Positions 4,043 through 49,112 of a DNA stretch of 64,000 nt are shown in pieces. This stretch comes from a virus, in the IMG/VR virus record IMGVR_UViG_3300037264_003623, positions 1 to 64,000 of that record; one strand, written 5' to 3'. The notes under the pieces are model-generated. The model worked only from the letters and a program-made list of their open reading frames with translations, did no database searches and was not told the DNA's origin. The translations under genes and the position numbers were made by a program. How positions within the stretch are numbered: the first letter of the stretch is position 1; each line of letters begins with the position of its first letter.

Positions 4043-4090
4043 TCAGGAGTCATGGGCAGATCGATGGGCGCTACAGGAAGGAGCGGCGTT

Positions 4091-7000: not shown

Positions 7001-7261
7001 ATCTTCAAGTACCTCGGGTCGCGCTACCTGGGGATGTCGTTCGAGGCACCGAAGGCGATCGATGAGGACGCCCCGAAGGAGCCGAGCAAGAGCGACGAGG
7101 AGCTACGCAGGGCGGTGATCAGGGCGCTCCGGCATCCGACGCAGTACAACACCTTCGACCTCTGCGATTGCGGCGGGATGCTCTACATGGAGGGACCGTG
7201 CAAGAAGTGCTCGAACAAGCTCTGCAAGAGGAACACGGAGAGCGGCGGGTGCGGGGGATAG
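4091..7261 (+). CDS. nrdJ: Class II (B12-dependent) ribonucleotide reductase with intein and C-terminal TSCPD-like domain
   Basis: FNSPVYFN, QCAACFI, GGIQRRAA, GDPGI, NP|C-x-E split by intein, CNLASMNL, PAGTIS, GSISKT; C-terminal GEVFV...GTKFEP..SLVDYIF. Confidence 0.95.
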   Translation: MARKGISIPRLFCPGDDPYSLFKWVRKNVDAKDKDGKPVTSHEGVEVPDFWSDSAAFILSDKYFRAAHGSCPREISLKQTLDRVVNEIVKWGVEHGYFDKANGAVFGNELRVMIASQRFSFNSPVYFNVGCMDKPQCAACFILVVYDDLGSISAMVPVIVHVFSHGSGCGFNLSLLREMGAPLSRGGVASGPKSFLLGYNSFAGIIKSGGIQRRAAMLARLDDTHPDVLDFIEMKSVEERKARALVRKGYTVEEAYKTVAFQNVNLSIGISDALMKAALEGKDWVLKSVLTGKTVKVIKAMDLLDMIAHGAHFCGDPGIQLDDTMNRGNPLIRVSKILSTNPCVVGSTNVYVKEGKKTVLKRVDRIKEGSAKILSYDFEKRKPVFAKATFLGKTRQNAKVVKLKTAKGEIRLTPDHEVMTSRGWIKAADIQKGDKIYRVKVIGGVSGEFGDSQTYPGRTSQVVVPDGNVEEIEVLGMEECEEGEDVYDFSVPKHHAFFTEEALVSNCAEFVCIPNTACNLASMNLAMFYRDGAFQHEEFRHAVRISIVAQDILVGLSGYPTPEIDKNSNEYRPLGLGFTNLGGMFIKMGIPYDSDQARMLASAVSADMTATAYQASVDIAKVLGPFSGFEYNRKAMLAVLKAHKNKFNALADAHSGAADLDGISDEWEKVCQEAVKHGIRNCQVTLVPPAGTISNILDCTTAGIEPILFSATKRRLDAGGELIVPSFEIDRGLEGLGYSKEERAIITKYIESNGTLSGAPVVKPQHLPVFDPVYPLKVGDRRVSAMAQIQMMGAVQPFISGSISKTIGLPESASVEEVKETIIQAWKLGLKAISFYRSNSKMSQPLVNAILEQEKMEEEEGGPARRVMPQEVRAHIHRGVVGPGSTSETKLYIIPGEREDGTLGEVFVTLAKEGSALRGLVDALMTAVSIGLQYGVPLEVFCKKFIGTKFEPMGWTRNEKIKFATSLVDYIFKYLGSRYLGMSFEAPKAIDEDAPKEPSKSDEELRRAVIRALRHPTQYNTFDLCDCGGMLYMEGPCKKCSNKLCKRNTESGGCGG
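5117..5608 (+). mobile_element. Mini-intein (164 aa, no endonuclease) in NrdJ
   Basis: Starts CVVGST, block B LTPDH, ends VYDFSV...LVSN; the +1 Cys is the NPCxE catalytic Cys. Confidence 0.9.
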
Positions 7262-8107: not shown

Positions 8108-8455
8108 ATGGCCGGAAGAAAAGGGCCAACCATGAACCTCGTCCGAAGGCTCGGGGAGGTGAACCCCGAAAGGCTCGCGGGCGAGGTCGCAAGTCTCCGT
8201 AAGGAGAGCGAGAACCTTCGCCTCGCCCTTGGTGTGAAGGTCGCGACCTACGTTAGGACGATCAACCTGGGGAAGGGTGATGTCCTCGTCGTTCGGCCCC
8301 CGAAGGGGATTTCCATCAGGCCGGAGGCGTGGGTCGCTGTCCTGGAGCACGTCTCGAAGCTGATGAAGGATCGGCTCGGGTGGGAGGGTCCGATCCTGTT
8401 CGAGGGGAACATGGAGATCAGCAAGCAGGTCGGAGGCTCTGATGGTCAGCATTGA
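8108..8455 (+). CDS. Hypothetical protein
   Basis: Typical codon usage; overlaps dnaB start. Confidence 0.6.
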   Translation: MAGRKGPTMNLVRRLGEVNPERLAGEVASLRKESENLRLALGVKVATYVRTINLGKGDVLVVRPPKGISIRPEAWVAVLEHVSKLMKDRLGWEGPILFEGNMEISKQVGGSDGQH

Positions 8456-11045
8456 CATGGGACTCGTCGCCCACATCGTCCACGGCGGATGCTTCGGCGT
8501 CGTCGTGGAGCAGGGGGTGGGAGGCGAGCACCTGTTCGCGGAGGCGAGGGTCGCCTTCGACTACATCCTCGTCCACTACTCGAAGTACGGGAAGGTCCCG
8601 GACGCCGCGACGATCGAGAGGGACACGAAGGTGGTGGTTCCTCCCCTCTCCGACGTGAAGGAACCGGTCGGCTACTACATCGACAAGGTGAAGGAGCGGG
8701 CCAGGGACAACCTTGCGAAGGAGGGCGTCAAGAGCCAGGTCCGGGCGATGGAGTCGGGCCGGACGCAGGAGGCGATCGACGCCGCAGCCAAGCTCTCCGA
8801 GGACCTCGCCAGACTGAACCTCCAGTCAGACCCGGTCGACGACTGGACGAGGCGCACCGAGGATCGGGAGGCCGAGTACAACAAGGCGAAGCTGATCGGG
8901 ACCGGGCTCATGGGCGTCGAGACGCCGTGGCCCGGCCTGAACGAGCTGACGCAGGGGATCTGTGAGGGCGACTTCTGGGTGATGTGTGGCAGACCTGGAG
9001 AAGGAAAGTGTGTCGCCGCCGGGACGCGGTTGGTCGATCCGGAGACCGGGATTGTGCTACCGGTCGAGGATGTCGTGGCCCGAAGGCGCCGGGTTCTGAC
9101 GTTCGACCGGGGGGATGGTCGGGTGCGTCCCATTACTCCTGTGGCATGGGTGTCTACGGGGAGGAAGGAGTGTCTGGCCGTCACCGTGGGTATCGGGAGG
9201 AAGCTACTCGTCACGTCGGAGCACCCGCTTCTGACGAGCCGGGGCTGGGTGAGGGCGGACGAGATCGCGGTGTCCGACAAGGTGGTCTGCGCCGCGAGGA
9301 TCCCGGAACCCGAGATGCCCGTGGCGTTGCCGGATTGCGACGTGGATCTTCTGGCGATTCTGCTGTCGGAAGGTAGTTATAGCGGGAATCATGTCGGGTT
9401 CTCGACGTCCGATCCGGTCTTCCTGGATGTCGCGAGGAAGGCGGCCGAGGGGCTTGGGATGAGGGTCGTCTATAGGGGGATGTACGATTACGATTTCGTG
9501 GGGAGGATGGTAGACAACGGGAAGAGGTCGATCGCGAGGGCTTTCCTTGAAAAGTACGGCCTCGGGCGTCGCATCGCGAGGAAGAAACGTATCCCTGATG
9601 CCATATTTTCCATCCCGAATCAGCATCTATCGAGGTTCCTGACCGTTTTTCTGATGGCCGACGGGTACGTGTCCCAGAAGGAGACGGGGGTGACGCTCGC
9701 GTCCGAGGGGATGATCGACGACATCCAGACATTGCTGCTCAGATTCGGTGTCGTCGCCAGGAAGAGATACAAGCGGTCCCGTTGCGGGGGGAAGGAGTTC
9801 GACGCATGGAAGCTCCGGGTGGATTCGTGGTGCTATCCCAACGTCAAGGGAGCTCTTTGCGGGATGTGGGGGGAGAAGGGGAGGCGGCTGCGGTCTCTTG
9901 AGGCGAGGGGGACTAACGTGGATAGCGTAGATGTCTCCGACAGGATGCGGTCCCAGATGGCCGATGCCTCCGAAAAGTATCGGAGGTCGGACGGCCCGAT
10001 CGCTGAGAGGCGCGGCCTGTTCAGGGACGCAGGGAGAAGGCTCGGACATGAGAAGGCCGAGGGACGGGACTTTATGGACAGGCATGGGTCCGGGAGGGTG
10101 TCGAGAAGGCTCTTGGCGGCGATCGTGGAGCAGGCGGACGGCCTTCTTGATGATCTGACGTGGATGACGAGCACGGACATAATGTTCGACGACGTCGTGT
10201 CCATCGAACGAGTCGGGGAGATGGACGTGTATGACATGAGCGTCGTCGGGACGCACAACTTCGTGGCCGAGGGGATCGTTTGCCACAACACTTGGTTCTT
10301 GGTGAAGATGGCGATGACGGCGTGGGCCAAGGGCGAGATTGTCCTTTTCATCTCGATGGAGATGAACAAGAGGAAGATCAAGCGGCGCATGGACGCCGTC
10401 CACCTGAAGCTGAACTACCACGACTTGAAGAGGGGGAAGCTCGGGATCGGGATCGAGGAGGAGTACATCAAGGCACTCAAGGAGCTCCGTGAGAAGCAGG
10501 CGGTGAACCCGCTCTATGTGGCCTCGGCGAGGAACGTCCGGCGCATCCGGGACATCGCCGTCCTGGTCCGTCTGTTCAAGCCCAAGGTGGTGTTCCTGGA
10601 CGGGCTCTACAAGCTCCGGCCCCCGAACATCGGGGTGTCCTCCTACTGGGAGCGCATCCAGGCGATCGCCAACGACCTCCAGCTCCTCGTCGGGGACATC
10701 GACACCAGGATGGTGGCGACGACTCAGCTCCGGCGCGAGGGCGGGAAGAACATGAAGAGGAAGCGCGGGGCGTCGGTGGAGATCGGGCTGGAGGACATCG
10801 CCTTCGCGGATGCCATCGGGCAGAACGCGGACGTGGTTCTCGGATTGGGCTCGACGAGGAGCATGAAAGACGATCACGAGCAGGTCCTCCAGGTGGTCAA
10901 GAACCGCGAGGACGAGAGGGGGGCGTGGCGCGTGAAGTTCGACCCCGGCTTCGGTGCCTTCGACGAGATCGAGCCCTACGAGCCCCAGACGACCCCGGAC
11001 GAGGACAGTGGGGGGGACGACGGGACGGTGGAGTACAGCCGATGA
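8442..11045 (+). CDS. dnaB: DnaB-like replicative helicase with intein
   Basis: GRPGEGK|T Walker A, FISMEM, VFLDG, TQLRRE, DAIGQNAD, KNR. Confidence 0.92.
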   Translation: MVSIDMGLVAHIVHGGCFGVVVEQGVGGEHLFAEARVAFDYILVHYSKYGKVPDAATIERDTKVVVPPLSDVKEPVGYYIDKVKERARDNLAKEGVKSQVRAMESGRTQEAIDAAAKLSEDLARLNLQSDPVDDWTRRTEDREAEYNKAKLIGTGLMGVETPWPGLNELTQGICEGDFWVMCGRPGEGKCVAAGTRLVDPETGIVLPVEDVVARRRRVLTFDRGDGRVRPITPVAWVSTGRKECLAVTVGIGRKLLVTSEHPLLTSRGWVRADEIAVSDKVVCAARIPEPEMPVALPDCDVDLLAILLSEGSYSGNHVGFSTSDPVFLDVARKAAEGLGMRVVYRGMYDYDFVGRMVDNGKRSIARAFLEKYGLGRRIARKKRIPDAIFSIPNQHLSRFLTVFLMADGYVSQKETGVTLASEGMIDDIQTLLLRFGVVARKRYKRSRCGGKEFDAWKLRVDSWCYPNVKGALCGMWGEKGRRLRSLEARGTNVDSVDVSDRMRSQMADASEKYRRSDGPIAERRGLFRDAGRRLGHEKAEGRDFMDRHGSGRVSRRLLAAIVEQADGLLDDLTWMTSTDIMFDDVVSIERVGEMDVYDMSVVGTHNFVAEGIVCHNTWFLVKMAMTAWAKGEIVLFISMEMNKRKIKRRMDAVHLKLNYHDLKRGKLGIGIEEEYIKALKELREKQAVNPLYVASARNVRRIRDIAVLVRLFKPKVVFLDGLYKLRPPNIGVSSYWERIQAIANDLQLLVGDIDTRMVATTQLRREGGKNMKRKRGASVEIGLEDIAFADAIGQNADVVLGLGSTRSMKDDHEQVLQVVKNREDERGAWRVKFDPGFGAFDEIEPYEPQTTPDEDSGGDDGTVEYSR
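9009..10289 (+). mobile_element. LAGLIDADG intein (427 aa) in the DnaB Walker A motif
   Basis: CVAAGT...TSEHP...LLSEGS...LMADGY...VYDMSV.GTHNFVAEGIVCHN / T. Confidence 0.93.
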
Positions 11046-15412: not shown

Positions 15413-15465
15413 AGCGGGGTGGGGAAAGCAGGAGGTCGGCGGTTCAAGTCCGCCCCCCGCTACCA
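15413..15465 (+). ncRNA. 53-nt tRNA-like element lacking anticodon and D arms
   Basis: Perfect AGCGGGG/CCCCGCT acceptor, GGCGG-TTCAAGT-CCGCC T arm, ACCA end, only an 18-nt connector. Confidence 0.7.
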
Positions 15466-15520
15466 GGGTGAAGAGAATGGCGGATTCATGCAGAAGGGGA
15501 GTCCGCGTTCCGTCCCCGAA

Positions 15521-15593
15521 GGGCGGATAGCTCAGCCGGTAGAGCGCCACGCTGATAACGTGGAGGCCGGGCGTTCGACTCGCCCTTCGCCCA
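15521..15593 (+). tRNA. tRNA-Ile(GAT)
   Basis: GGGCGGA/TTCGCCC, CCACG-CTGATAA-CGTGG, TTCGACT. Confidence 0.9.
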
Positions 15594-15637
15594 TGAGACG
15601 GCGGAAGGGCGCGGCCACGGTTCGGCATCGAGCTCAC

Positions 15638-18600
15638 ATGGCCGAGGAGAAGAGGATCCAAGACGCCAAGGGCAGGCTTCTCACCCTCCTGCGTAAGGGG
15701 GGCGGCGACGAGGGCCTGCGCTCGCTCCTGGAGTCGGACCCGGCGGCGGTTCAGGCCGCGGCCAGGCGAGACGAGGCGAGGAGGAAGGGGATGTCCAACA
15801 TCGAAGAGGCGGTGGCCTCCCTCACGAAGGCGGCGGCGTTCTCTCTGGACCTGGAGACGGACGGGCCGTCGAGGGCAGAGGCGACCGACCCGCTCCGGGG
15901 AAAGATCGTCGGGGTCTCGTTCGGGGTGGACTTCAAGCCGGGCTCGTCGTGGTGGTTCCCATTCGAGGGGGGAGCCGCGGCGGGGGAACAGGTCTTCTCT
16001 CAGGTCGAGGTATTCCGGGCCGTCCAGCCAATCCTTCTCGATCCTGCCAAGACACTCATCGGGTCCAACTGCAAGTTCGACCTCATGTTCTTGAAGATGA
16101 ACGGGGTGGAGGTCAGGAACAGGCTGTTCGACACGGTGGTCGCCGACTGGATGATGAACGAGAACAACCGGCGGCACGGCCTGAAGGAGATCGTCAAGAG
16201 GGAGTTCGACGTCGAGCTGGAGAAGTTCACGACGGCGTGGGCGTCGAGGGACCTCGTGGGGGGGAGCCGGTTCTCTGAGTACGCGGTGAACGACGCGAGG
16301 TATGCCTTCAAGCTGTGGCGCGACGTCCACATGAAGTTTCTGGAGGCGAAGGGGAGCGAGAGGCTCAGCAAGCTCTTCCACTCTGTCGAGATGGAGATCG
16401 TCCACATCTTCATGGAGGCCGAGATGGAGGGCGTGTGCATCGACCTCGCCTACATCGCGGCCCTCAAGGAGAGGATGGAGACGGCTAAGAAGGAGGCCGC
16501 CGACCGGGCGTTCTCGATCATGGGGCGGCCCTTCAAGATCAGCTCCCCGGAGGAAGTCAGCATCATCCTCTTCGGGGTTCCGCCGGAGGAGGCGCTTAGG
16601 TCCGCGATGGAGTCCAGGGAGCGAAGGAAGCCCAAAGCCGCCAAGAAGGACCTAGTCGAGAAGTTCAACACAAAGGGGCTGTTCGGTGCCCCGAAGGGCA
16701 TGTTCCCGGTCCCCCTGGACAGGAAGGGGAGATCGGTCCTCCCGGGCGACAACGGGTTCTACTCCACGGACGACTCGGTTCTCAATGGGTACGACCATCC
16801 CTTCGTCAAGGCCCTTCTCGATTACCGGAGCGCGAGCCAGACGCTCAAGTTCTTCGTGTACGCCTACATCGGCGGGGACCCGGACGATCCCAAGAAGGTC
16901 GGGTCCGTTCGTGACGGGCGGGTGTACCCCGATTTCCATCAGGCAGGCACGATCGCGGGCCGGTTCTGCGTTTCGGGAGATACGGTGCTGGAGACATCGG
17001 TTGGGATTTGTCGTATTTCTGATTTAGAATTGCCTAATAATCAGCAAGTATCTATAATCACTCATAGAGGACAGCCCCGGCGGATCCTCGGCAAGTACTA
17101 CCTCGGGAGGGAGGAGATGTTCCGGGTCGTGCTCGATAACGGGTCGAGCATCGCCGGGACGAGGGGGCATCGGGTTCTGACGTCGGGGGGATGGAGACAT
17201 CTCTATGAGTTGCGGTGCGGCTCCAGGGTGCTTAGTTCCTGTGATTCGGCTCGACGGGGCGGTGTACAAGGGCAGGCGGCATGTGTTGCCGGAGGACGTA
17301 TTCAGGAAGCTGCTGGAGGAGGAGGATATCTGGGAGGCGGAGCTCCTGCGGAAGTACCGGATAGGGAGGCATGTCTGGTATGCCTCGAAGTATCTGTACG
17401 GGGAGAAGTACGGGGAGCAGATTCGGCGACTGCACCGGAATCGGCTTTCGATGGCCTTGACCGGGAACCGGAATGGGGAGCGGAAACCGGCCAGGATGGT
17501 CCCCAAGGAGATCCTCCAGTCATTTCTGGATGTGGGGTACAATCTTCCGGAGATGGCGCGGAGGTTGGGGATGAGCGAGTTTCTGATTCGGAGGAATCTT
17601 TCGCTTCATGGATTGGCTCGGACGGGGCAGTTACCTCGGCACATGCAGGCGACGGACTTGGAAATGGTTCGTCGGCTGGACACTCTTTCCCCCGGGCTTA
17701 TGGAGGCGGCGAAGCAATATCACGAGAGGCCGAAGGAGTTCTACGACGCCCTGTATGTCGCCTTCGCGAGGCTTGTCCAGCATCTCTGGTTCATCCAGGG
17801 ACTCTCGGGGGGCTATCGGTATCTAAGGGACCGGAAGCGTCTCCCGAAGAATCATGTTTGTTGGAGCATGAACAGGGCGGAGCTGCAACTATCGATGGCT
17901 CTTCTCGACGCGGGGATACCCCATGTTCGCCAGTTCTTCATGGAGAGGTACATGGTGGACTTTGCCTTTCCGGAGGCGAATCTACTGGTGGAGGTGGACG
18001 GGGAATACCACAAGGCGGACGCGGTTACGAAATGTCGGGACGTCAGAAAGGCGGCGAAGATTCAGGAACGGGGATGGGGGGTTCTGCATTTCACGACGAA
18101 GCAAGTCGAGACGAATCCTGGGGAAGTGGTTTCGTCTATCCGACGGCGGCTGTCGTCAGCATTGAGTCCATAGGCGAGCAGGACGTATGGGACATAGAGG
18201 TGGAGGAGGACCACTCCTTCATCGCCAATGGTTTCGTGAACCACAACTCGTGCAGCGAACCCAACCTTCAGCAGGTAAGTGGCAAGAAGGGCCTGGTCAA
18301 GCCGATGTTCGTCCCGCCTTCCGGACATAAGTTAGTAGTTGGTGACTTCAACCAGCTCCAGTTCCGCCTGGCGGGGCACTACGCCAAGACATGGTTCGGG
18401 AAGTCGAACATCGCGGACGCCTACCTGGCCGGGATGGACCTTCACACGAGGACGATGAGGGAGCTCGGGTTCGACAAGAAGTACCCGGACCCGAAGGAGG
18501 CACGGAAAGAGGCCAAGAGGGTCAACTTCTCATTCATCTTCGGGAGGGGCGCCTCGTCGTTCGCCGAGGAGAACAAGCGTCCTTCCGCCGAGGCCACGAT

Positions 18601-19090
18601 GTTCTACAACGGGTTCCACAAGTCGTACCCCGAGATCCGTTGGTGCTCGAACAAGTGCCGCAAGGACCTCTGCGAGAAGGGATATGTGGAGTCGATCCTC
18701 GGCAGGCGGAGGAACTTCCCGCAGCACAAGGGCAAGGACCCCAACGCATACGAGAAGAAGGAGGAGGACGGCGGGCCCCGGAGCAACCTCTGGTGGGATG
18801 GGTGGGTGGCGTGGAACGCGGTGGTCCAGGGCGCGGAGTCGGATCTGGTTCGGATCGTCATGCGGAACATCTACCGCGAGATCCTGGAGCGGCGGAAGGC
18901 AGATCCGAGGTGGAACACGGTCAAGATGCTCATTCAGGTCCACGACGAGATCGTCTATCAGGCGCCCGACGAGATCGCCGAGGACATGGCGACGTTGATG
19001 CGCGAGAAGGGGTCGAACTTGCTCACCCTAAAAATCCCCATCATCTTGGACGTCGGTGTGGGAGTGACGTGGGAGGCTGCTAAGAAATGA
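15638..19090 (+). CDS. polA: Family A DNA polymerase (3'-5' exonuclease + polymerase) with intein
   Basis: DLET, N.KFD, YAVND exonuclease motifs; T.AGRF|SCSEPNLQQ; motif A DFNQLQFR, motif B RKEAKRVNF, motif C QVHDE. Confidence 0.95.
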   Translation: MAEEKRIQDAKGRLLTLLRKGGGDEGLRSLLESDPAAVQAAARRDEARRKGMSNIEEAVASLTKAAAFSLDLETDGPSRAEATDPLRGKIVGVSFGVDFKPGSSWWFPFEGGAAAGEQVFSQVEVFRAVQPILLDPAKTLIGSNCKFDLMFLKMNGVEVRNRLFDTVVADWMMNENNRRHGLKEIVKREFDVELEKFTTAWASRDLVGGSRFSEYAVNDARYAFKLWRDVHMKFLEAKGSERLSKLFHSVEMEIVHIFMEAEMEGVCIDLAYIAALKERMETAKKEAADRAFSIMGRPFKISSPEEVSIILFGVPPEEALRSAMESRERRKPKAAKKDLVEKFNTKGLFGAPKGMFPVPLDRKGRSVLPGDNGFYSTDDSVLNGYDHPFVKALLDYRSASQTLKFFVYAYIGGDPDDPKKVGSVRDGRVYPDFHQAGTIAGRFCVSGDTVLETSVGICRISDLELPNNQQVSIITHRGQPRRILGKYYLGREEMFRVVLDNGSSIAGTRGHRVLTSGGWRHLYELRCGSRVLSSCDSARRGGVQGQAACVAGGRIQEAAGGGGYLGGGAPAEVPDREACLVCLEVSVRGEVRGADSATAPESAFDGLDREPEWGAETGQDGPQGDPPVISGCGVQSSGDGAEVGDERVSDSEESFASWIGSDGAVTSAHAGDGLGNGSSAGHSFPRAYGGGEAISREAEGVLRRPVCRLREACPASLVHPGTLGGLSVSKGPEASPEESCLLEHEQGGAATIDGSSRRGDTPCSPVLHGEVHGGLCLSGGESTGGGGRGIPQGGRGYEMSGRQKGGEDSGTGMGGSAFHDEASRDESWGSGFVYPTAAVVSIESIGEQDVWDIEVEEDHSFIANGFVNHNSCSEPNLQQVSGKKGLVKPMFVPPSGHKLVVGDFNQLQFRLAGHYAKTWFGKSNIADAYLAGMDLHTRTMRELGFDKKYPDPKEARKEAKRVNFSFIFGRGASSFAEENKRPSAEATMFYNGFHKSYPEIRWCSNKCRKDLCEKGYVESILGRRRNFPQHKGKDPNAYEKKEEDGGPRSNLWWDGWVAWNAVVQGAESDLVRIVMRNIYREILERRKADPRWNTVKMLIQVHDEIVYQAPDEIAEDMATLMREKGSNLLTLKIPIILDVGVGVTWEAAKK
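16967..18247 (+). mobile_element. Intein (427 aa) in PolA with an out-of-frame nested gene
   Basis: CVSGDT...GTRGHR...VWDIEVEEDHSFIANGFVNHN / S; central 320 aa are low-complexity in the PolA frame. Confidence 0.92.
17205..18173 (+). CDS. DUF559/Vsr-like endonuclease nested in the +1 frame of the PolA intein
   Basis: HTH LPEMARRLGMSE; AELQL..AL, YMVDFAF...LLVEVDGEYH...RD......GWGVLHF; GGAG 8 nt upstream of ATG. Confidence 0.85.
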   Translation: MSCGAAPGCLVPVIRLDGAVYKGRRHVLPEDVFRKLLEEEDIWEAELLRKYRIGRHVWYASKYLYGEKYGEQIRRLHRNRLSMALTGNRNGERKPARMVPKEILQSFLDVGYNLPEMARRLGMSEFLIRRNLSLHGLARTGQLPRHMQATDLEMVRRLDTLSPGLMEAAKQYHERPKEFYDALYVAFARLVQHLWFIQGLSGGYRYLRDRKRLPKNHVCWSMNRAELQLSMALLDAGIPHVRQFFMERYMVDFAFPEANLLVEVDGEYHKADAVTKCRDVRKAAKIQERGWGVLHFTTKQVETNPGEVVSSIRRRLSSALSP

Positions 19091-22054: not shown

Positions 22055-22071
22055 TACCTTTGGAGGCGATC

Positions 22072-24477
22072 ATGGGAGACAAGCTTCAGGACCTCTTCAA
22101 CGGCGTCAGGAAGCAGCACGGGAAGTTGAGCGTCAGGAAGGCATCGGAGCTGGAGGGGGGGATCCCGAGGATCCCCACCGGCATCTTCTGGCTCGACGCC
22201 GACATGGGCGGCGGGATTCCCATCGGTCGGATGACCGAGGTTGTCGGCCTCAAGTCGTCGGGGAAGTCTTCCCTCATGGCGAAGATCGTCGCCAGCGCCC
22301 AGCGGCTCTGCCGGAAGTGCTTCCGCCCGATCACGGAGTGGGAGGAGGAGGAGCGGGAGCGCAAGTCCGTCTCCGTGGATGTGGCGACCGGCGAGGTCAT
22401 CGAGAAGATGGTCCCCTACATGGTGAAGGTCGCGAAGGACTGCGCCAATAAGTGCAGGGAGGATTCCGACGGGAAGAAGAAGAAGCACCCGGGCCGGATG
22501 ACCGTCCTGTGGGTGGATCAGGAGGGCTGCGTCTCGGAAGACAACGAGATCCTCGACCCGATGACGGGTCGAATCGCAACGGTGGGAGAGTGGGTTCGAG
22601 GCCAGGGCTGCAACGTCGAATCATTGGCGGGAAATCGCCTTTCCGTGGTCCCGATTTCCTCGAAGTGCGATTCTGGTATCCGTCCGGTTTTGCGGATCTT
22701 CACGGCGACCGGCTGGGTGGAAGTCACTCCGAATCATCCTCTTCTCGTTTGGAGAAGAGGGCAAACGTGGATTCCTGCGGCTGAAATTCAGCCAGGGGAC
22801 TACATCGCTCGTCCGCGATGGAGCTCGTTCGAGGGGGGGCGGCATCCTGATGCGGAGGTCGCGGGCCTTCTGGGGTATATGCTCGGAGATGGCGGGATCG
22901 CGGAATCGGCCAGTAGTCCTACGATCACAAACAAGGGTGATCCAGAGATCATGCGCCGGTTTTCGGAACTGGTTTCTTATTTTGGGTGCAAGATCAAGAA
23001 GTACGATGACCGGCACTATCGGATCATCGGGGAGGATAGTAACGGGAGTAGCGGGGCCAATAAGGGGCGGAACGGGGTGAAGAACTGGTTTCGAGAGAGG
23101 GGGATGCTCGTTCCATGCTACGAGAAGTTTCTACCGGAGGAGGTATTCCAGTGGGACAACATCTCCGTCGGGAGGCTTCTTGTTGGCCTGTTCATGACGG
23201 ACGGGTCCGTCAACATTGCTAGGGCATCGGCGGTTATCGGGTTCACTTCTAGGCGGTTAATTTTGCAAGTTCGGCACCTTCTCTCCAGATTGGGAATCTT
23301 GGCGCACTTGAGCATCTACCGGTACAAGAATCCCCGCCACCGGGATCAGCATACGCTTGCTATCAATGGGGTGCCTAATCTTCAGCGATTCAGGGAGTTC
23401 GTTCCCCTGTATGGAGAGAAGGGCTCGAAGCTCGATTCCTGGTGTCTTTCGGAACGGAAGCAGATTCATTATCCCGACGATTTCTACCTTCCTGGATACA
23501 GGAACGCGATGTGGAGTCATCGGGGGGCGTTCGAGAACGAATCCGATGTATGGTGGGATAAGGTGGTGAAGATCGAGCCGAGAGGGGAGAAGCATTGCTG
23601 GGACTTTGGGGTTCCCCCGCATAAGAACTTCGTTGTCAACGATTTCGTGGGGCACAATACCTTCACCCCGGACTTCTACAGGAACTTCGGGGTGGACTGC
23701 GACGACGTCTACCTTTCGTCTCCCGAGACGGGGGAGCAGGCGGTGGACCTCATCGATGCGGCCATGCGGACCGAGGAGGTGGACCTGATCGTGGTGGACT
23801 CCGTGGCGGCCATGACCCCGAGCGTGGAGCGTGAGGCGTCTGCCGAGGACCTCCAGGTCAGCCTCCAGGCGAGGAACGTGAACAAGGGGCTCCGGGTGTG
23901 GACGGCGAGCCTCAACGCCCTCGGCAACCGGGAGGGGAACGACTGCACCCTGCTTCTGGTGAACCAGCTCCGCACGAAGATCGCTTCCTTCTACACCGGG
24001 TACGTCAAGCCGGGTGGGGTGGGACAGGAGTTCGCGACCAGTGCTGAGCTCTTCCTCAAGCAGAAGGACTACATCCTCGACACGAAGGGCGCTACCGTGG
24101 CGGAAGAGGTCGAATACCTGGTCGACAAGAACAAGGTCGGGACTCCGAAGGGGGTGGGGAGGTATAGGATGTGCCTCAAGGCGCACCCGGCCTTCCCGGG
24201 GATGCCCGACCCCTTGCGGCTGCCGGGCGACACATGGGACGACGCCACGGTGCTCAGCGTGCTAAGTGAGCGCGGGTTCCTGGCCGAGGACCAGAAGACC
24301 AAGGAGGTGATCCTCTTCGGCCAGCGGTTCCCAGACCAGCAGGCCCTCCAGATGGCCCTGTTCCAGAAGGGGGACCTCTACTGGAAGGCGCGGAATGCCC
24401 TGATCCAGTTGATCGTCAACACGCCGAGCGACGGGAAGCTCAAGGAGAAGAAGAAGAAGGGCGACAAGGAGGAGTGA
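22072..24477 (+). CDS. recA: RecA/UvsX recombinase with intein
   Basis: IPTG..LD..MGGGIP.GR.TE..G..SSGKS, VDQEG|T, PETGEQA, IVVDSVAA, NQLR, KNKV. Confidence 0.92.
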   Translation: MGDKLQDLFNGVRKQHGKLSVRKASELEGGIPRIPTGIFWLDADMGGGIPIGRMTEVVGLKSSGKSSLMAKIVASAQRLCRKCFRPITEWEEEERERKSVSVDVATGEVIEKMVPYMVKVAKDCANKCREDSDGKKKKHPGRMTVLWVDQEGCVSEDNEILDPMTGRIATVGEWVRGQGCNVESLAGNRLSVVPISSKCDSGIRPVLRIFTATGWVEVTPNHPLLVWRRGQTWIPAAEIQPGDYIARPRWSSFEGGRHPDAEVAGLLGYMLGDGGIAESASSPTITNKGDPEIMRRFSELVSYFGCKIKKYDDRHYRIIGEDSNGSSGANKGRNGVKNWFRERGMLVPCYEKFLPEEVFQWDNISVGRLLVGLFMTDGSVNIARASAVIGFTSRRLILQVRHLLSRLGILAHLSIYRYKNPRHRDQHTLAINGVPNLQRFREFVPLYGEKGSKLDSWCLSERKQIHYPDDFYLPGYRNAMWSHRGAFENESDVWWDKVVKIEPRGEKHCWDFGVPPHKNFVVNDFVGHNTFTPDFYRNFGVDCDDVYLSSPETGEQAVDLIDAAMRTEEVDLIVVDSVAAMTPSVEREASAEDLQVSLQARNVNKGLRVWTASLNALGNREGNDCTLLLVNQLRTKIASFYTGYVKPGGVGQEFATSAELFLKQKDYILDTKGATVAEEVEYLVDKNKVGTPKGVGRYRMCLKAHPAFPGMPDPLRLPGDTWDDATVLSVLSERGFLAEDQKTKEVILFGQRFPDQQALQMALFQKGDLYWKARNALIQLIVNTPSDGKLKEKKKKGDKEE
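22528..23658 (+). mobile_element. LAGLIDADG intein (377 aa) in RecA
   Basis: CVSEDN...TPNHP...LGYMLGDG...LFMTDGS...NFVVNDFVGHN / T. Confidence 0.92.
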
Positions 24478-40820: not shown

Positions 40821-41228
40821 GTGCAGACGAACCGCAGCCAGAGGTGGGGCAAGAACATTTCCATCTCCCTCTCGAAGGCGGACAAGCCGGACCTCAAGAA
40901 GGCGGTCATGGACTTCCTGGAGAAGAACCCGGAGCCGAGCGACGACGCATGGCACGCATGGGCGGAGAGGGAGGGGTTCGACGTCCACCAGGCGGAGGCG
41001 GTCGCCTACGCCCTGGCTGGGCGGCTCGTCAAATTCCTTCGGGGAGGGCGGTCCAAGGGAGTACGACCGACAGGGGCGTCCGATGAGGAGGTCGTACTGG
41101 GCGTCGAGATCGAGTCCGAGCATGTCGACGACGAGGAGATCCAGAGGAAGATCGCCTACGACCACCTGGAGGAGTTCGAGAACTACAACACCGAGCTTCG
41201 CGACATGGAGGAGAGGCTGAACGGGTAG
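40821..41228 (+). CDS. DUF5661-like protein with shared leader
   Basis: GVEIESEH...KIAYDHLEE...Y..L..ME; GTG after AGGAGG. Confidence 0.7.
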   Translation: MQTNRSQRWGKNISISLSKADKPDLKKAVMDFLEKNPEPSDDAWHAWAEREGFDVHQAEAVAYALAGRLVKFLRGGRSKGVRPTGASDEEVVLGVEIESEHVDDEEIQRKIAYDHLEEFENYNTELRDMEERLNG

Positions 41229-41303: not shown

Positions 41304-42305
41304 ATGAACACCAAGGAAAGCAAGGTATGGGGGGCCAAGCTCGCGTCGGTCCTGGGCACCACGATCGAGAAAGGAACGCGAGAGGGTAAGAGGGAGGAGA
41401 CTCTATGCCTTGAGGAAGGCGAGGAATTGCTGACTCGCGGAGGCCCAGGTTCAGGCCATTTCGGGCATGCCGGGCGTCCCGGCGCGGTGGGTGGCAGCGT
41501 CGAGGGAGGGGTGCAGGCCGGTCGGGCCGAGGCTCCCGAGTCCCCCGAGCACTTCAAGTGGTCGGGCAAGTTCGAGATGAAGCGCAAGGCGGGGCCGGGC
41601 GTGAACCTCTCGATCATCAAGGACCCCCGCCAGCGCCACTTCGAGGTCCACGGGGCGGCTGACGCCAAGGGCAAGCCGAAGCGAGGGAAGGCCGTCATCC
41701 GGACCAACGGAGACACCATCGAGCTCGATCACGATGAGCTCCACGACCTTCGGTCGAAGATGCGCTACGTCCAGATGACGAATACCCGCGACATCCAGGA
41801 GATCGCGGGGAGGGAGATCGTCAGGGGAAACACGATCGAGGTCGAGCACAAGGGGAAGACGGTGAGGATCCCCGTGAACGAGGACACCGTCCGCGAGATT
41901 GATCGCGCCTCCCATGCCTCGAAGAAGGAGGGGTTCTCCTTCACAGGCGAGAGCAAGCGGGAGATCCACAGGGCATACGACAAGATGTCGCGGGGGAACC
42001 CGATCCACATCGTGAAGGACATGGGGTTCTCCAAGGCCGGGAAGTTCGCGGCGTTCCGGGCCTATGTGGACGGGCCGAAGCGGTCGAAGAAGGACGTGGA
42101 CCGCTTGGTCGAGAGCAAGCGCGGCGTGGTGTCGAAGTCGACGGTCCAGGCCCTTCGACGGACGGCGAAGCAGTTCTTCGAGACTAGGAAGTCGGGATGG
42201 GATGCGAGGGACGGGCGATCCGCCACGGACGCCATGAAGCACTACCAGAAGGCGGCGGCCCTGTTCTCCCGGATCGAGAAGTCGGGCGAGCGGAAGAGGA
42301 GGTGA
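41304..42305 (+). CDS. Basic protein with leader and GGPGSG tag (putative virion cargo)
   Basis: GGPGSGHFGHAGRPGAVGGS motif; SD GGAGG. Confidence 0.7.
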   Translation: MNTKESKVWGAKLASVLGTTIEKGTREGKREETLCLEEGEELLTRGGPGSGHFGHAGRPGAVGGSVEGGVQAGRAEAPESPEHFKWSGKFEMKRKAGPGVNLSIIKDPRQRHFEVHGAADAKGKPKRGKAVIRTNGDTIELDHDELHDLRSKMRYVQMTNTRDIQEIAGREIVRGNTIEVEHKGKTVRIPVNEDTVREIDRASHASKKEGFSFTGESKREIHRAYDKMSRGNPIHIVKDMGFSKAGKFAAFRAYVDGPKRSKKDVDRLVESKRGVVSKSTVQALRRTAKQFFETRKSGWDARDGRSATDAMKHYQKAAALFSRIEKSGERKRR

Positions 42306-42655: not shown

Positions 42656-43060
42656 ATGGGGGAGCAGGCGGACGGGCGATTCTACGGCCCTCACCTGACG
42701 ATCGACGCCTACGGGTGCTCCAAGGAGAGGCTCGCGAGCCTGGAGGCCGCGTTCGACTTCCTGGACCGGATGCCGGGGGTCATCGGGATGGAGAAGATCA
42801 CCAAGCCTTACGTGTTCCGGCATCTCGCGCCGCCGGACCCGGAGTGGGGAATCACGGGGGTGGTCATCATCGCCACGAGTCATGTGAGTTTTCATTCTTA
42901 TCCCCAGATGGGGGTGTGCTTCGTGGACGTCTTCTCATGCAGGCCGTTCGATACGCGGAGGGCCGTGGATTTCTTCCAGGAGACGTTCGGAGGGGACGAG
43001 GTCGAGATCCGCGAGGTGAAGCGCGGTCTCCATTTCCACGAGACAGGAGGCGCTCGGTGA
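42656..43060 (+). CDS. speD: Pyruvoyl-dependent S-adenosylmethionine decarboxylase-family proenzyme
   Basis: G.HL.ID.YGC, GITGVVII.TSH.S.H.YP, VDVFSC..FD. Confidence 0.85.
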   Translation: MGEQADGRFYGPHLTIDAYGCSKERLASLEAAFDFLDRMPGVIGMEKITKPYVFRHLAPPDPEWGITGVVIIATSHVSFHSYPQMGVCFVDVFSCRPFDTRRAVDFFQETFGGDEVEIREVKRGLHFHETGGAR

Positions 43061-43323
43061 GCGTAAAAAAGGTTCCGTGCCCGGTGTGCAACAAGGACAT
43101 GGAGTACGCGGGGCAGGAGGGAGGGCACAAGGAGCGGGCCAAGAGCGGCGAGGTCATCGAAACCGTCCATGTGTTCTTCATGTGCGAGAAGTGCGACACG
43201 TCGGTTCGCCTTCGCTTCCGGAAGGACGGCCAGACGGGGGACCTCTGGCGGGAGATCCAGAGGCGGAAAGCGGTAGGCAAGGTGGTCACCGACTTCGGTG
43301 GGAAGTTCGGAGAGATGGGATGA
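43057..43323 (+). CDS. Zn-ribbon protein
   Basis: CPVC...CEKC; coupled at both ends. Confidence 0.65.
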   Translation: MSVKKVPCPVCNKDMEYAGQEGGHKERAKSGEVIETVHVFFMCEKCDTSVRLRFRKDGQTGDLWREIQRRKAVGKVVTDFGGKFGEMG

Positions 43324-45161
43324 GAACGCAGGATAGCAAGCGGTTCGCAGGCCTTCTCCTGGGCTCCCTGAACAAGGCGGAGTTCGAGGAGGAGGCGCAC
43401 CCGAGGGACGCCACGGGGAAGTTTGCCCCGAAGGAGGAATCCGCCCCTGCCGAGTCCGAGCACAGGAACCTTCGGTCCCTCGCCAGGGAGGCGTCCGCCC
43501 TGAGGGCCATCGGGGACGAAGGGGCAGCCAGGAAGATCGAGCAGAAGCTCCAGGCCGCCAGGGGGAAGGCAGAGGAGGGCCGTAGGGAGAGGATGCCGAA
43601 GCCGCTCGCTCCCCCTCGCCCCCAGCCAGCGCCCGCACCGAGGCCGCCGAGGGCGGCACCCGTTCCCCCTCCCCCGCCTCCATCTCCACCGAAACCGGCG
43701 AGATCTCCTCTTCCAAGGGCCGGGCCCGTCGATGTGGCCCATGAGCAGATAAGGATCGACAACGCGAGGGCGAAGGGGGATCTCTTCCGCGCCATGCGGA
43801 GGAGGATGGACGCGATCAAGGATCCGGCGAAGATGATGAACTTCGCTGATGCCCTGGACAGGAACAAGTACGATCAACTGGCCCAGGAGGCCAGGAACAA
43901 GCTCTTCGGCATGGGGTATGACAGGGATGGGAAGCCGGTCGATTTCGGGGCGAAGCCTCCTGCACCGTCTCCCGAGCCTCCTCCCTCGCCCGCGCCGCAG
44001 AGGCCCGCTCTGGCCGTCGCGGAACCTAAGCAACTGAGGCACGAGAAGGAGGCCGTCGGCGAGCTGAAGCGCAGGGCGTCCGGCTTCGACGATCTGGAGT
44101 CCAGGGTCAGGGAGAGGGTTCTGAGGCTCAAGAACCAGCAGAATAATCCACAGAAGGTTCGGAGCTTCGCCGATGAGCTGGAGGCACAGGGGGAGAAGTA
44201 TCTTGCGGAGGAGGCCAGGAACGCCCTCTGGGAGATGGGGTACAAGCCCGACGGCAGTCCGGTGCCGGAGGGCGAGAGGTTCGCGAGGCCCGCGCACGGT
44301 GTCCCGAGGCCAGCCGCGCCGCCTCCTCCTTCTCCTCTTCCTGAGGCCAGGGGTGCGACCGGCGTGAAGCACCCGATGTCGTCCGTCCACGACAGCGGGG
44401 CCGCCATGAAGGATGTCCAGTTCAATTTCCACGACAAGATTCACAAGGCGAAGGAGATGGGTGGCGGGATCGGGGAGACGCACAGGATCGAATTCAAGGA
44501 TGGGAACAAGGCCATCTACAAGCCGACGGCGGGGTCGGGGCTCCAGCATTACCACGATATGGGCCGTGATGTTAGGCGGACGATCGACTGGCAGATTCCG
44601 GAGGGGCAGCGGGAGGCCGTCGCCTACGCGATCAGCCGGGAGGCGGGTTTCGACATCGTGCCTCATGTCGAGCTGGTGAACTACCCGGTCGGGCGTCCGG
44701 GCGGGGGACACGCGATGGCTTGGGTGGAAGGTCAGGAGGCGGCCCACGCGGGGCAAAAGCTGAGGGATGATGCGAACGCCAATCATCCAGACCTGCACCG
44801 GATTGTCGCTCTCGACTTCATCATGGGCAACACCGACAGGCACTCCAGGAACTTCATGGGTGGCAAGGATGGACGATGGTACGCGATCGACAACGGGCTC
44901 GCCGGGTGCAAGGACATGGACATGTCGGAGTACAGGTCCGGACCCCATAGTATGTTGGAGGGGAGTCGGATACCTGACGAGGTCAAGGCCGAGATTCGAG
45001 CGATCAAGCCCGATGTGGTCAAAGGTGCCATGCAGAAGGCGGGATTCAAGCCGGTGGACATCAAGGGTGCCCTCGCCAGAATCGACTATTTGTCGAAGGC
45101 TCGAACATGGAAGAGCACCTGGGATGACAGTAGTGCAGCCAAGAGGCTCTACGAGGAGTAG
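43320..45161 (+). CDS. Leader/HPR-tagged protein with C-terminal HipA/PI3-4-kinase-like domain
   Basis: AIYKP, REAVAY, IVP, DFIMGNTDRH..N, AIDNG; internal repeat FAD.L......LA.EARN.L..MGY..DG.PV. Confidence 0.85.
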   Translation: MRTQDSKRFAGLLLGSLNKAEFEEEAHPRDATGKFAPKEESAPAESEHRNLRSLAREASALRAIGDEGAARKIEQKLQAARGKAEEGRRERMPKPLAPPRPQPAPAPRPPRAAPVPPPPPPSPPKPARSPLPRAGPVDVAHEQIRIDNARAKGDLFRAMRRRMDAIKDPAKMMNFADALDRNKYDQLAQEARNKLFGMGYDRDGKPVDFGAKPPAPSPEPPPSPAPQRPALAVAEPKQLRHEKEAVGELKRRASGFDDLESRVRERVLRLKNQQNNPQKVRSFADELEAQGEKYLAEEARNALWEMGYKPDGSPVPEGERFARPAHGVPRPAAPPPPSPLPEARGATGVKHPMSSVHDSGAAMKDVQFNFHDKIHKAKEMGGGIGETHRIEFKDGNKAIYKPTAGSGLQHYHDMGRDVRRTIDWQIPEGQREAVAYAISREAGFDIVPHVELVNYPVGRPGGGHAMAWVEGQEAAHAGQKLRDDANANHPDLHRIVALDFIMGNTDRHSRNFMGGKDGRWYAIDNGLAGCKDMDMSEYRSGPHSMLEGSRIPDEVKAEIRAIKPDVVKGAMQKAGFKPVDIKGALARIDYLSKARTWKSTWDDSSAAKRLYEE

Positions 45162-45181
45162 AGCGGGTCAGGAGGAGAAAC

Positions 45182-45499
45182 ATGCTCATCGGGATGAGGG
45201 TTCGGAAGGACACGGATAAGGGCGAGGCTACCGTGTTCGAGTACCGGATGGGCCAGAATGGCAGGGTGGCCCTTACGGTCGGGGATCCGAACGAGATCGT
45301 CTCGGAGATCACGCTGGGGTCGGGGGACAACACGATGATCGAGGACATGGGCGGGTCATACGGGGTGAGGATGCCCCCGTTCGCGAAGGGGGCCGAGAAG
45401 ACATACACCCCCGCCGACGGGGTGAGCTTCATCCTTGCGCTCCTCGTCCAGTTCAGCAGGAACAACGGCTACTCGTGGGCGGAGCCGATCCTCTCATGA
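45182..45499 (+). CDS. Small kinase-partner protein (putative immunity)
   Basis: Paralog of 46686..47006; SD AGGAG. Confidence 0.75.
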   Translation: MLIGMRVRKDTDKGEATVFEYRMGQNGRVALTVGDPNEIVSEITLGSGDNTMIEDMGGSYGVRMPPFAKGAEKTYTPADGVSFILALLVQFSRNNGYSWAEPILS

Positions 45500-46689
45500 A
45501 GACGTTCTACTCCAGGAAGTTCGCGAGGTTCATGGGTTCCATCCTGGCGAAGGCCACATGGGACCCGGATCTCCACCCGAGGAGCGAGGGCGGGAAGTTC
45601 TCCAGGACCGAGGGAGTCTCTGAGGAGAGGCGGGTCGCGGAGAGGCTCATGGGGACCTCGGCGGATCAGCTTGAGGCGGAGGCACGGGAGACCGAGCGGG
45701 AGGCTTCCGCGCTGAGGGCGATGGGGAAGGGCGAGAAGGCCGCGATGGCCGACGCCGTGGCGAGGGACCTGATGGAGAGGGCGAAACTGGCGAGGGAGCC
45801 GGTCAGGGTGTTCAGGCCGGGATCGGAGCCGAGGAGGCCCGCCCCGCCGATAGATCCCACGAGGCATCCGCAGGAGTCCGTGAGGGGGAGGGCAGAGACG
45901 ATGAGAAAAGCCTCGGGGAAGCCTGAGGCTTTCATCATGAACACGCGCAGGGTCATGGGGGGCAAGGGAGAGTGCCACCGAGTCCTCTTCGACGACGGGA
46001 CCAGGGCCGCCTACAAGCCGACGGCGGGGTCCGTCCTTGTGCAGATGGAGAAGCAGGGCCGGGGTGAGGAGATCACGATCGACCCGAAGATCCCGGAATC
46101 GAAGCGCGAACGGGCCGTCTTCGATCTCAGCGCGATGGCCGGGTTCGACGTGGTGCCCCCGGTCGAGCTCGTGGACTACGATGGGGTGGGGTCCCCCGGG
46201 GGCGGGCACGCTATGGCATGGGTGGACGGGCAGGAGGCCATTGACATCGAGGACCAGTACTACAAGGACATCTCCGCGAACCATCCCGACCTTCACCGGA
46301 TTGCGGCGCTCGACTTCATCACGGGCAATGTAGACCGGCACCAGGGGAACTTCATGAGGGGGAAGGACGGGCGCTGGTACGCGATCGACAATGGCCTCTG
46401 CTTCACCAGGGACATGGAGCTCGGGATGTCGTGGTCCGATGTCATGCGGAAGCTCATGATGCACGTCACGCCGCCGGAGGTGCGGGCGGAGATCGCCTCG
46501 ATCGACAAGGACGCTATGGGCGGAATCATGAAGGAGGCGGGCTTCGACGCCGTGGACATCAAGGCCGCGCAGACGAGGCTGGATGTGCTCAAGGCCTTGG
46601 GCGGGTGGGGGACGGAGGGGCAAATGTACGGGGCGGCCGAGGACGCCTACTTCCAGGCGGGTGGGCGCAGGCGGCCAGGGAGGGAATGA
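45496..46689 (+). CDS. Second leader/HPR-tagged HipA/PI3-4-kinase-like protein
   Basis: AAYKP, RERAVF, DFITGNVDRH..N, AIDNG. Confidence 0.85.
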   Translation: MKTFYSRKFARFMGSILAKATWDPDLHPRSEGGKFSRTEGVSEERRVAERLMGTSADQLEAEARETEREASALRAMGKGEKAAMADAVARDLMERAKLAREPVRVFRPGSEPRRPAPPIDPTRHPQESVRGRAETMRKASGKPEAFIMNTRRVMGGKGECHRVLFDDGTRAAYKPTAGSVLVQMEKQGRGEEITIDPKIPESKRERAVFDLSAMAGFDVVPPVELVDYDGVGSPGGGHAMAWVDGQEAIDIEDQYYKDISANHPDLHRIAALDFITGNVDRHQGNFMRGKDGRWYAIDNGLCFTRDMELGMSWSDVMRKLMMHVTPPEVRAEIASIDKDAMGGIMKEAGFDAVDIKAAQTRLDVLKALGGWGTEGQMYGAAEDAYFQAGGRRRPGRE

Positions 46690-47006
46690 TCGTGCTCATT
46701 GGGGTAAGATGGGTGAGGGACGTGGACACCGGGCGGGATGTGTCGTTCGAGTACAGGCTGGACCCGAGGACCGGCAAGGCTGTCCAGGTCGCGGGGCCCG
46801 CGAGGGCGAACGACGAGGTGATCCTCTCCCCGTGGGATGGGGTGATGGGCCCCGAGATCGCCAAGTATCACGGGATGGATTTCAAGCCGGTTCCGAAGGG
46901 CGGGAGGAGGCTGACCCCGGACGACGGGGTTGACTTCCTTCTCGCCGTTCTCGTCAAGTACGCGAGGAACACCGGCTACGGCAGGGTCGAGCCGATCAGC
47001 CGATAG
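46686..47006 (+). CDS. Small kinase-partner protein (putative immunity)
   Basis: LIG.R..D.D.G...FEYR...TP.DGV.F.LA.LV...RN.GY...EPI shared with 45182..45499. Confidence 0.75.
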   Translation: MIVLIGVRWVRDVDTGRDVSFEYRLDPRTGKAVQVAGPARANDEVILSPWDGVMGPEIAKYHGMDFKPVPKGGRRLTPDDGVDFLLAVLVKYARNTGYGRVEPISR

Positions 47007-49084: not shown

Positions 49085-49112
49085 TTGGCGAATACGCTAA
49101 AGGGTGTATAAT
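49085..49112 (+). promoter_or_regulatory. Promoter TTGGCG-N16-TATAAT, leaderless-type
   Basis: ATG 49119 lies 7 nt after the -10 box. Confidence 0.65.

Follow-up and report, generated by a model that had tools for sequence, protein, structure and literature searches.

The DNA analyzed here, referred to as the window, is a 64,000-nucleotide (nt) stretch comprising the first 64 kb of the linear 109,083-bp IMG/VR record IMGVR_UViG_3300037264_003623 (estimated to be 75% complete), which derives from an uncultivated tailed phage with a whole genome of ~145 kb. Positions 43057 to 47006 on the + strand carry genes for a small Zn-ribbon protein, a predicted kinase (K1) followed by a small partner protein (P1), and a second predicted kinase (K2) followed by its own partner (P2). 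Both kinases start with a short N-terminal leader and a short sequence motif, here called a tag. The genes and their parts are as follows.

43057..43323, + strand: Zn-ribbon small protein, 88 amino acids (aa); first gene of the conserved unit
43320..45161, + strand: kinase K1, 613 aa; leader, HPR-type tag, coiled coil, Pro-rich linker, two helical repeats, Pro-rich linker, kinase core
43320..43376, + strand: K1 N-terminal leader, 19 residues, ending in L-N-K
43377..43424, + strand: K1 tag of the HPR-x3-G-K-F type, directly behind the leader Lys (motif scan)
43695..43955, + strand: K1 helical repeat, copy 1 (BLASTP, K1 residues 126-212 versus 226-320)
43995..44279, + strand: K1 helical repeat, copy 2 (BLASTP within K1)
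44382..45134, + strand: K1 kinase core, predicted to be type II phosphatidylinositol 4-kinase (PI4K)-like; K401, E432, D506-R-H-x2-N511, I-D524-N-G
45182..45499, + strand: partner P1, 105 aa, with neither leader nor tag
45496..46689, + strand: kinase K2, 397 aa; leader, tag, helical region, linker, core, conserved C-terminal tail
45496..45552, 45553..45600, and ~45868..46665, + strand: K2 leader, HPR-type tag, and kinase core, respectively
46686..47006, + strand: partner P2, 106 aa, with neither leader nor tag

The GTG start of the Zn-ribbon gene overlaps the stop codon of an S-adenosylmethionine decarboxylase gene (GTGA; AGGAGG lies 7 nt upstream), and its own stop overlaps the K1 ATG (ATGA). 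The P2 ATG overlaps the K2 stop in the same way (ATGA), and the 20-nt gap between K1 and P1 contains AGGAGGA, 5 nt before the P1 ATG. The initial annotation of this DNA had placed the K2 start at a GTG at 45475; it is instead the ATG at 45496, which overlaps the P1 stop as ATGA. Because start and stop codons overlap between the genes, the Zn-ribbon gene, K1, P1, K2, and P2 are predicted to be one operon.

K1 and K2 are paralogs (46% identity over 293 aa; E = 4e-75), as are P1 and P2 (38% identity over 103 aa; E = 9e-23), in agreement with the two tandem kinase open reading frames (ORFs) and two small ORFs that the initial annotation had located on the + strand. Its further statement that the cores are conserved and that linkers and partners have diverged also holds: the kinase cores are 49% identical, compared with 38% for the partners and ~29% for the N-terminal parts of the kinases. 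The duplicated helical unit that it had noticed in K1 was recovered by BLASTP (38% identity over 95 aa; E = 1e-14), and a K1 ortholog on another phage contig (L032, positions 4873 to 6885) has the same architecture, with both helical repeats kept. For K2, orthologs were found in four proteins (P0014, P0021, P0030, and P0037), all of which share with K2 a C-terminal tail, A-A-E-D-x-Y/F-F-Q-x-G-G-R-R-R (window positions 46630 to 46689), that K1 lacks and that we take to resemble a TEV-type protease site. Scans of viral contigs with the single proteins K2 and P2 gave no matches.

The kinase motifs described in the initial annotation are intact. The alignment of K1/K2-type kinases shows no variation at the ATP-binding Lys, the Glu paired with it, the catalytic-loop DRH-x2-N, or the metal-binding IDNG; most of these positions are also invariant in a further alignment, and the catalytic residues align to those of PI4KII-beta. 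Since the catalytic motifs are invariant, the kinases look active, as far as can be judged from sequence. The Pfam PI3_PI4_kinase family (PF00454) was matched through the catalytic loop region alone, with K2 (32.5 bits) exceeding the cut-off of 27.1 and K1 (26.5 bits) falling slightly short of it. HipA_C was approached only by K1 (15.4 bits; cut-off, 30.5; E = 0.015), with no match for K2. The NCBIfam family TIGR03843 (the SCO1664 family) was matched with E = 6e-15, and as the scores of 42.6 to 55.3 bits are below the cut-off of 172.4, the kinases are not members of it. A kinase profile searched against PDB sequences retrieved PI4KII-beta (E = 5e-8). The AlphaFold2 model of K2 (mean predicted local distance difference test [pLDDT] score of 85; core, >90) superposes best on human PI4KII-alpha (4pla_A; Z = 21.3, 255 residues, root mean square deviation [rmsd] of 3.1). 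The next tier comprises Fam20 (Z = 13.8), CtkA (13.2), actin-fragmin kinase (12.7), HipT (7wcf and 7ab3_C; 10.5 to 11.8), and HipA (9.6 to 10.2), and Foldseek with the same model agrees with the PI4KII ranking (E = 4e-7). Judging from the model, K1 and K2 are atypical kinases of the PI3/PI4-kinase superfamily with the type II phosphatidylinositol 4-kinase fold. The HipA-like part of the label given initially is imprecise, as the kinases are nearer to type II PI4K in fold than to HipA, and membership in the HipA family was rejected since both Pfam and structure favor type II PI4K. The fold is compatible with either a protein or a lipid substrate, because several relatives with the same fold are protein kinases.

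The kinase-then-partner layout recurs in six further metagenomic phage loci. Altogether, the partner gene starts 0 to 30 nt behind a K1/K2-type kinase gene in eight pairs: twice in the window and once each in L005 (identical to L013, on a 111.6-kb viral contig), L010, L011, L012, L014, and L032 (identical to L033). In L010 the gene order is partner, kinase, partner. The L032 and L033 contigs (109 to 116 kb) were binned into two different archaeal metagenome-assembled genomes (MAGs), Methanomicrobiales and Bathyarchaeia, and are 99.98% identical over 12.8 kb; the archaeal binning is probably an artifact, and no host can reliably be assigned from these bins. In the eight pairs, identity ranges from 37% to 49% among the kinase cores and from 23% to 55% among the partners, and their divergence is correlated (Spearman coefficient of 0.54; the pairs are not independent). 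Cellular homologs of the kinases in Acidimicrobiia MAGs have no partner. Taken together, we are fairly confident that kinase and partner are specifically associated, both functionally and physically.

The unit extends upstream of the kinase. Homologs of the Zn-ribbon protein are encoded directly before the kinase in L032, L005/L013, L011, and L012 (hidden Markov model [HMM] E values of 1e-38 to 8e-55), which, with the window, makes five loci. The conserved unit therefore consists of Zn-ribbon, kinase, and partner genes, to which the window adds a second kinase-partner pair; the initial annotation had recognized the pairs and missed the conserved gene at 43057 to 43323. The Zn-ribbon family comprises ~32 clusters, all unnamed, and in Pfam the protein gives only sub-threshold matches to Zn-ribbon families.

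The partner family is small and consists mostly of stand-alone proteins. HMMER, run exhaustively against 1.84 billion representative proteins, gave 20 matches, 17 of which are stand-alone proteins of 102 to 114 aa; none of the 20 is a kinase-partner fusion. The three long matches are giant repeat proteins and were judged spurious, the two that were examined matching solely via Ig-like or low-complexity repeats. None of the 20 family members has a Pfam match, and the partners of the window matched nothing in Pfam, PHROGs, NCBIfam, or PADLOC. Against the PADLOC defense models, the kinases likewise gave no match below an E value of 0.05. The partner alignments either varied too much to be used in pattern scans or returned no loci, and the partner profile gave only chance matches among PDB sequences.

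The AlphaFold2 model of the partner (pLDDT of 95) has six strands and two helices. A VIA-align scan of this model against 48,161 chains reached a best Z of 3.9, and ranks 1, 3, 4, and 23 were HipS or the N-subdomain 1 of HipA, with 77 to 79 residues aligned at an rmsd of ~4, which is a weak similarity. The individual values were 3.9 for Legionella HipS (7vkb_B), 3.7 for Escherichia coli HipS (7ab3_B), and 3.5 and 3.0 for the HipA N-subdomain (5k98_A and 4pu3_A). Foldseek with the partner model found nothing in PDB or BFVD, hhalign of the partner alignment against 11 collected actinobacterial HipA N-domains gave a probability of 0.1%, and no Couple_hipA domain (PF13657) was detected in the genome at E values up to 10. 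An ESM Atlas model of the partner was poor and was discarded after returning beta-propeller noise. We treat "HipS-like" as a lead and not as a family membership. HipS is an antitoxin of ~100 aa that blocks ATP binding in HipT and is a proven inhibitor of that kinase (PMC9325769).

The leaders and tags set the kinases apart from their partners. In each K1/K2-type kinase, the leader has [LIVM]-x-K at its end, and behind it comes a short tag of one of two types, H-P-R-x3-G-x-F/W or GTSEGA...GWETRR. Motif scans found neither leader nor tag in the partners, as the initial annotation had stated for these proteins of ~105 aa, nor in the Zn-ribbon proteins. The genome of the window contains five leaders (K1, K2, a third kinase paralog K3 that lies outside the window, and two ORFs that begin at 40821 and 41304) and tags on seven ORFs, K1 and K2 included, with the HPR-type tag occurring twice in the ORF at 49104. 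Leaders are also present on the kinases of L008, L010, L011, and L032. The HPR-type tag is found on type IB topoisomerase and other proteins in L032 and L008; the topoisomerase of L032 (positions 226 to 1206; PF01028, E = 5e-40) has the same leader as well. A single ORF of L010 (positions 326 to 2278), flanked by a partner gene on each side, contains a leader, a tag, an HD_4 domain (RelA/SpoT-type HD; E = 3e-13), another tag, a Lys/Pro-rich linker, and a kinase, and looks like a tag-punctuated polyprotein. In addition, a leader-bearing protein with a third, Gly-rich tag, G-G-P-G-S-G-H-x-G-H-A-G-R-P-G, is conserved in both the window (41304 to 42305) and L032 (3359 to 4297). Searches of the literature on the tag motif, on TIGR03843/SCO1664, and on phage PI3_PI4 kinases returned nothing relevant, and no similar phage module of kinase and partner was met in the papers searched.

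K3 (record positions 95079 to 95981; L003 positions 1252 to 2151) encodes 300 aa, is ~31% identical, and has a leader of the same kind, with no tag and no partner. It is located between the large terminase (TerL) and portal genes. Genes of the K3 type lie 2 to 8 kb upstream of the portal gene in this phage and in four relatives whose portals are 55% to 69% identical, and because of this position in five phages the K3 type looks like a core gene of the phage group; it is also commoner in databases than the K1/K2 type. A related 156-kb phage has four diverged kinase paralogs, 489 to 527 aa long, arrayed in tandem (L050; G086:C1:24500-35000, minus strand). The ORFs behind its first two kinases gave marginal matches to the partner profile (E ~0.006), and a fifth kinase is located at ~108 kb (L051).

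These observations suggest that the kinases are probably virion cargo. The leader and tag would direct the kinases and the other tagged enzymes into the prohead, where the head protease would trim the leader behind its Lys; the kinases would then be ejected with the DNA and phosphorylate a target in the next host. A hint to [LIVM]-x-K as a cleavage site comes from the sequence of the HK97-fold capsid protein, which begins with a 20-residue stretch ending in I-E-K. On these sequence features, we judge packaging of the kinases in the head to be slightly favored. The partner, co-diverging with its kinase, would be made stoichiometrically with it via translational coupling. Having no tag, it would most likely stay behind in the producing cell, bind its cognate and presumably toxic kinase, and block its activity up to the time of packaging, in the way that HipS acts on HipT and immunity proteins act on polymorphic toxins. 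We consider inhibition of the kinase by its partner to be an evenly balanced proposition. For the combined reading of packaged kinase cargo with an in-cell inhibitor, our confidence falls just short of even. The initial annotation had proposed packaged effectors with cytoplasmic inhibitors, and part of that proposal gains support from the coupled unit in eight diverged pairs and from the leaders and tags on kinases and not on partners; the resemblance of the partner to HipS, a known small kinase inhibitor, fits it too but is weak (Z of 3.0 to 3.9), and the profile comparison fails.

Several observations speak against packaged kinases with inhibitory partners. The genes for the large terminase (84766 to 90162), the portal (103193 to 106333), and the HK97-fold capsid protein (from ~108088) lie outside the window (record coordinates), and ~40 kb separates the kinase cluster from these head genes. 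The closest K2 orthologs, which are of the P0021 type (L008 and L009), have no downstream partner, and K3-type kinases never have one. Either some kinases can do without the partner, or the partnerless ones are controlled otherwise. The resemblance to HipS is weak (Z < 4) and finds no support from Foldseek, hhalign (0.1%), Pfam, or PDB sequences, and this reading assigns no role to the Zn-ribbon protein.

The main rival holds that the partner binds the kinase as a helper, be it a folding or packaging chaperone, a prohead adaptor, or a completing or activating subunit like the N-subdomain in intact HipA. Adjacency, coupling, and co-divergence show association and not the sign of the effect, and the fold resemblance agrees with either sign, because in HipA the N-subdomain, to which the partner is weakly similar, forms part of the active enzyme itself. 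An accessory helper would also explain the partnerless close kinase orthologs more easily. However, a small ORF behind a toxin gene is typically an immunity gene (PMC5576092), the stand-alone HipS proteins characterized so far are inhibitors, and, having no tag, the partner lacks a link to the head; we regard the helper explanation as unlikely, while giving it more weight than the other alternatives.

It is still less probable that the kinases stay unpackaged and, like T7 gp0.7, work within the infected cell, their targets being proteins or lipids of host or phage, with leaders and tags serving localization, assembly, or regulated proteolysis and the partner being a regulator or a substrate. 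The position of the cluster, beside replication and auxiliary genes (AAA ATPase and S-adenosylmethionine decarboxylase) and far from the head genes, would suit such a role. This explanation has to contend with a leader/tag system that marks unrelated enzymes and punctuates multidomain ORFs, with a capsid protein whose short N-terminal piece ends in the same [LIVM]-x-K, and with a leader-bearing K3 paralog between TerL and portal in five phages. Finally, a phage-borne toxin-antitoxin, abortive-infection, or superinfection-exclusion module, composed of a Hip-like kinase toxin and an antitoxin and unrelated to virion cargo, is very improbable: the broad kinase superfamily is common to HipA and HipT (Z of ~10 to 12), the partner is weakly HipS-like, and the trio of Zn-ribbon, kinase, and small protein recalls HipBST, but no PADLOC model is matched, neither HipA_C nor Couple_hipA is reached, no helix-turn-helix (HTH) regulator is present, the long leader/tag/linker N termini and the L010 fusion to a tagged enzyme are unlike toxin-antitoxin toxins, and the relatives found are all on large phage contigs, none of them in a cellular toxin-antitoxin context.

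The surrounding DNA has a G+C content of ~62%, and the long frames with a coding G+C pattern (high third-position G+C) are all on the + strand of the window. By blastn, this DNA gave no matches to deposited phages. The first 30 kb contain replication genes for ribonucleotide reductase, a DnaB-type helicase, primase, DNA polymerase, another helicase, a UvsX-like recombinase, and an exonuclease. Within this replication module, the ORF at 25615 to 26844 matches the PHROGs transposase family phrog_506 (E = 1.5e-105). The kinase and partner genes fall in a cluster of mostly unknown genes at 38 to 52 kb, with the AAA ATPase and S-adenosylmethionine decarboxylase genes adjacent. The decarboxylase gene (42656 to 43060; PF02675, E = 5e-26) looks like an inserted auxiliary gene, and the genes flanking it are adjacent to each other in the syntenic L032 cluster. 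The ribonucleotide reductase, DnaB, DNA polymerase, UvsX-like recombinase, TerL, and portal genes (window positions 4052 to 7261, 8442 to 11045, 15419 to 19090, and 22060 to 24477 and record positions 84766 to 90162 and 103193 to 106333) are far longer than is usual for their families and are only partially covered by profile matches. HNH matches are present in TerL and the portal protein. The excess length of these essential genes, together with the partial profile coverage and the HNH matches, suggests inteins or homing-endonuclease insertions.

Most phage proteins that are coinjected with DNA are poorly understood, and the kinases among them have hardly been studied. If the kinases are delivered and the partners inhibit them, they would represent a new phage route to host takeover by phosphorylation and a new kinase-inhibitor family, perhaps HipS-like in action despite an unrelated sequence. 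The leaders and tags would amount to a compact code for loading foreign proteins into capsids, with a possible use in phage engineering. With two diverged pairs next to each other, the window offers a ready-made test of cognate specificity.

Among known systems, the nearest counterpart for the leaders is the cargo of phage T4 (IPI-III and Alt), which carries a capsid-targeting sequence that is trimmed by the prohead protease. Both involve a short N-terminal leader common to unrelated proteins of one phage and, as proposed here, enzymes delivered with DNA; they differ in the leader sequence, in the proposed cut behind Lys, and in the internal tags. A second parallel is found in the MuF polymorphic toxins of temperate phages (Jamet et al. 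2017, PMC5576092), in which a variable enzymatic domain is attached to a carrier that is presumably associated with the head, and a small unannotated ORF lies directly downstream. A small immunity ORF follows 89% of the MuF phage toxin genes (PMC5576092), and a downstream small ORF of this style is present in the eight kinase-partner pairs. In contrast, the carrier in our phage is a 19-residue leader with a short tag, the modules are tandemly duplicated, and the payload is a kinase, none being listed in PMC5576092; Pfam and PHROGs scans of K1 and K2 gave no match to a MuF (SPP1 gp7-like) domain.

With respect to kinases, the split Hip modules HipBST and hipJS consist of a HipT or HipJ kinase and a HipS antitoxin of ~100 aa (PMC9325769, PMC10627512, PMC8262856), and in hipJS the HipS gene is downstream of the kinase (PMC8262856), as is the small gene of the phage unit. 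Both modules and the phage unit combine a core-only kinase of the PI3/4K-HipA superfamily with a separately encoded alpha/beta protein of ~100 aa, and HipBST is, like the phage unit, tripartite. However, the phage kinase fold is type II PI4K-like (Z of 21, versus ~10 to 12 for HipT and HipA), and no relation of the partner to HipS or Couple_hipA could be detected by sequence, its fold similarity being only Z 3.0 to 3.9. The third gene of the phage unit encodes a Zn-ribbon protein and not the HTH protein HipB. The phage kinases also have long linkers in addition to their leaders and tags, and their genes are located in a cargo-like cluster of a phage. Kinase domains are also known in phage polyvalent proteins, for which the T7 kinase was cited as a precedent (Iyer et al. 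2017, PMC5512222). These are of the Ser/Thr/Tyr type and lack a C-lobe, and no partner gene was described for them; a polyvalent-protein kinase of Iyer et al. was accordingly rejected as the identity of K1 and K2, being a C-lobe-less Ser/Thr-type domain. PI4KII-alpha, PI4KII-beta, and the actinobacterial TIGR03843 family (SCO1664) are the best structural or profile matches and share the catalytic-loop and IDNGL motifs, while being only 14% to 18% identical to the phage kinases. The system differs from the known ones in its kinase fold, in a partner family without detectable sequence relatives, in its Zn-ribbon gene, and in its leader/tag system. As a bolder and rather doubtful suggestion, it could stand for an undescribed, widespread class of virion-delivered PI4KII-like kinase effectors of uncultivated phages, with a leader and modular tags as the capsid address, a dedicated small inhibitor of a new sequence family with HipS-analogous action, and a Zn-ribbon third component, that is, a phage counterpart of the tripartite HipBST that would serve as an offensive weapon and not as a toxin-antitoxin system.

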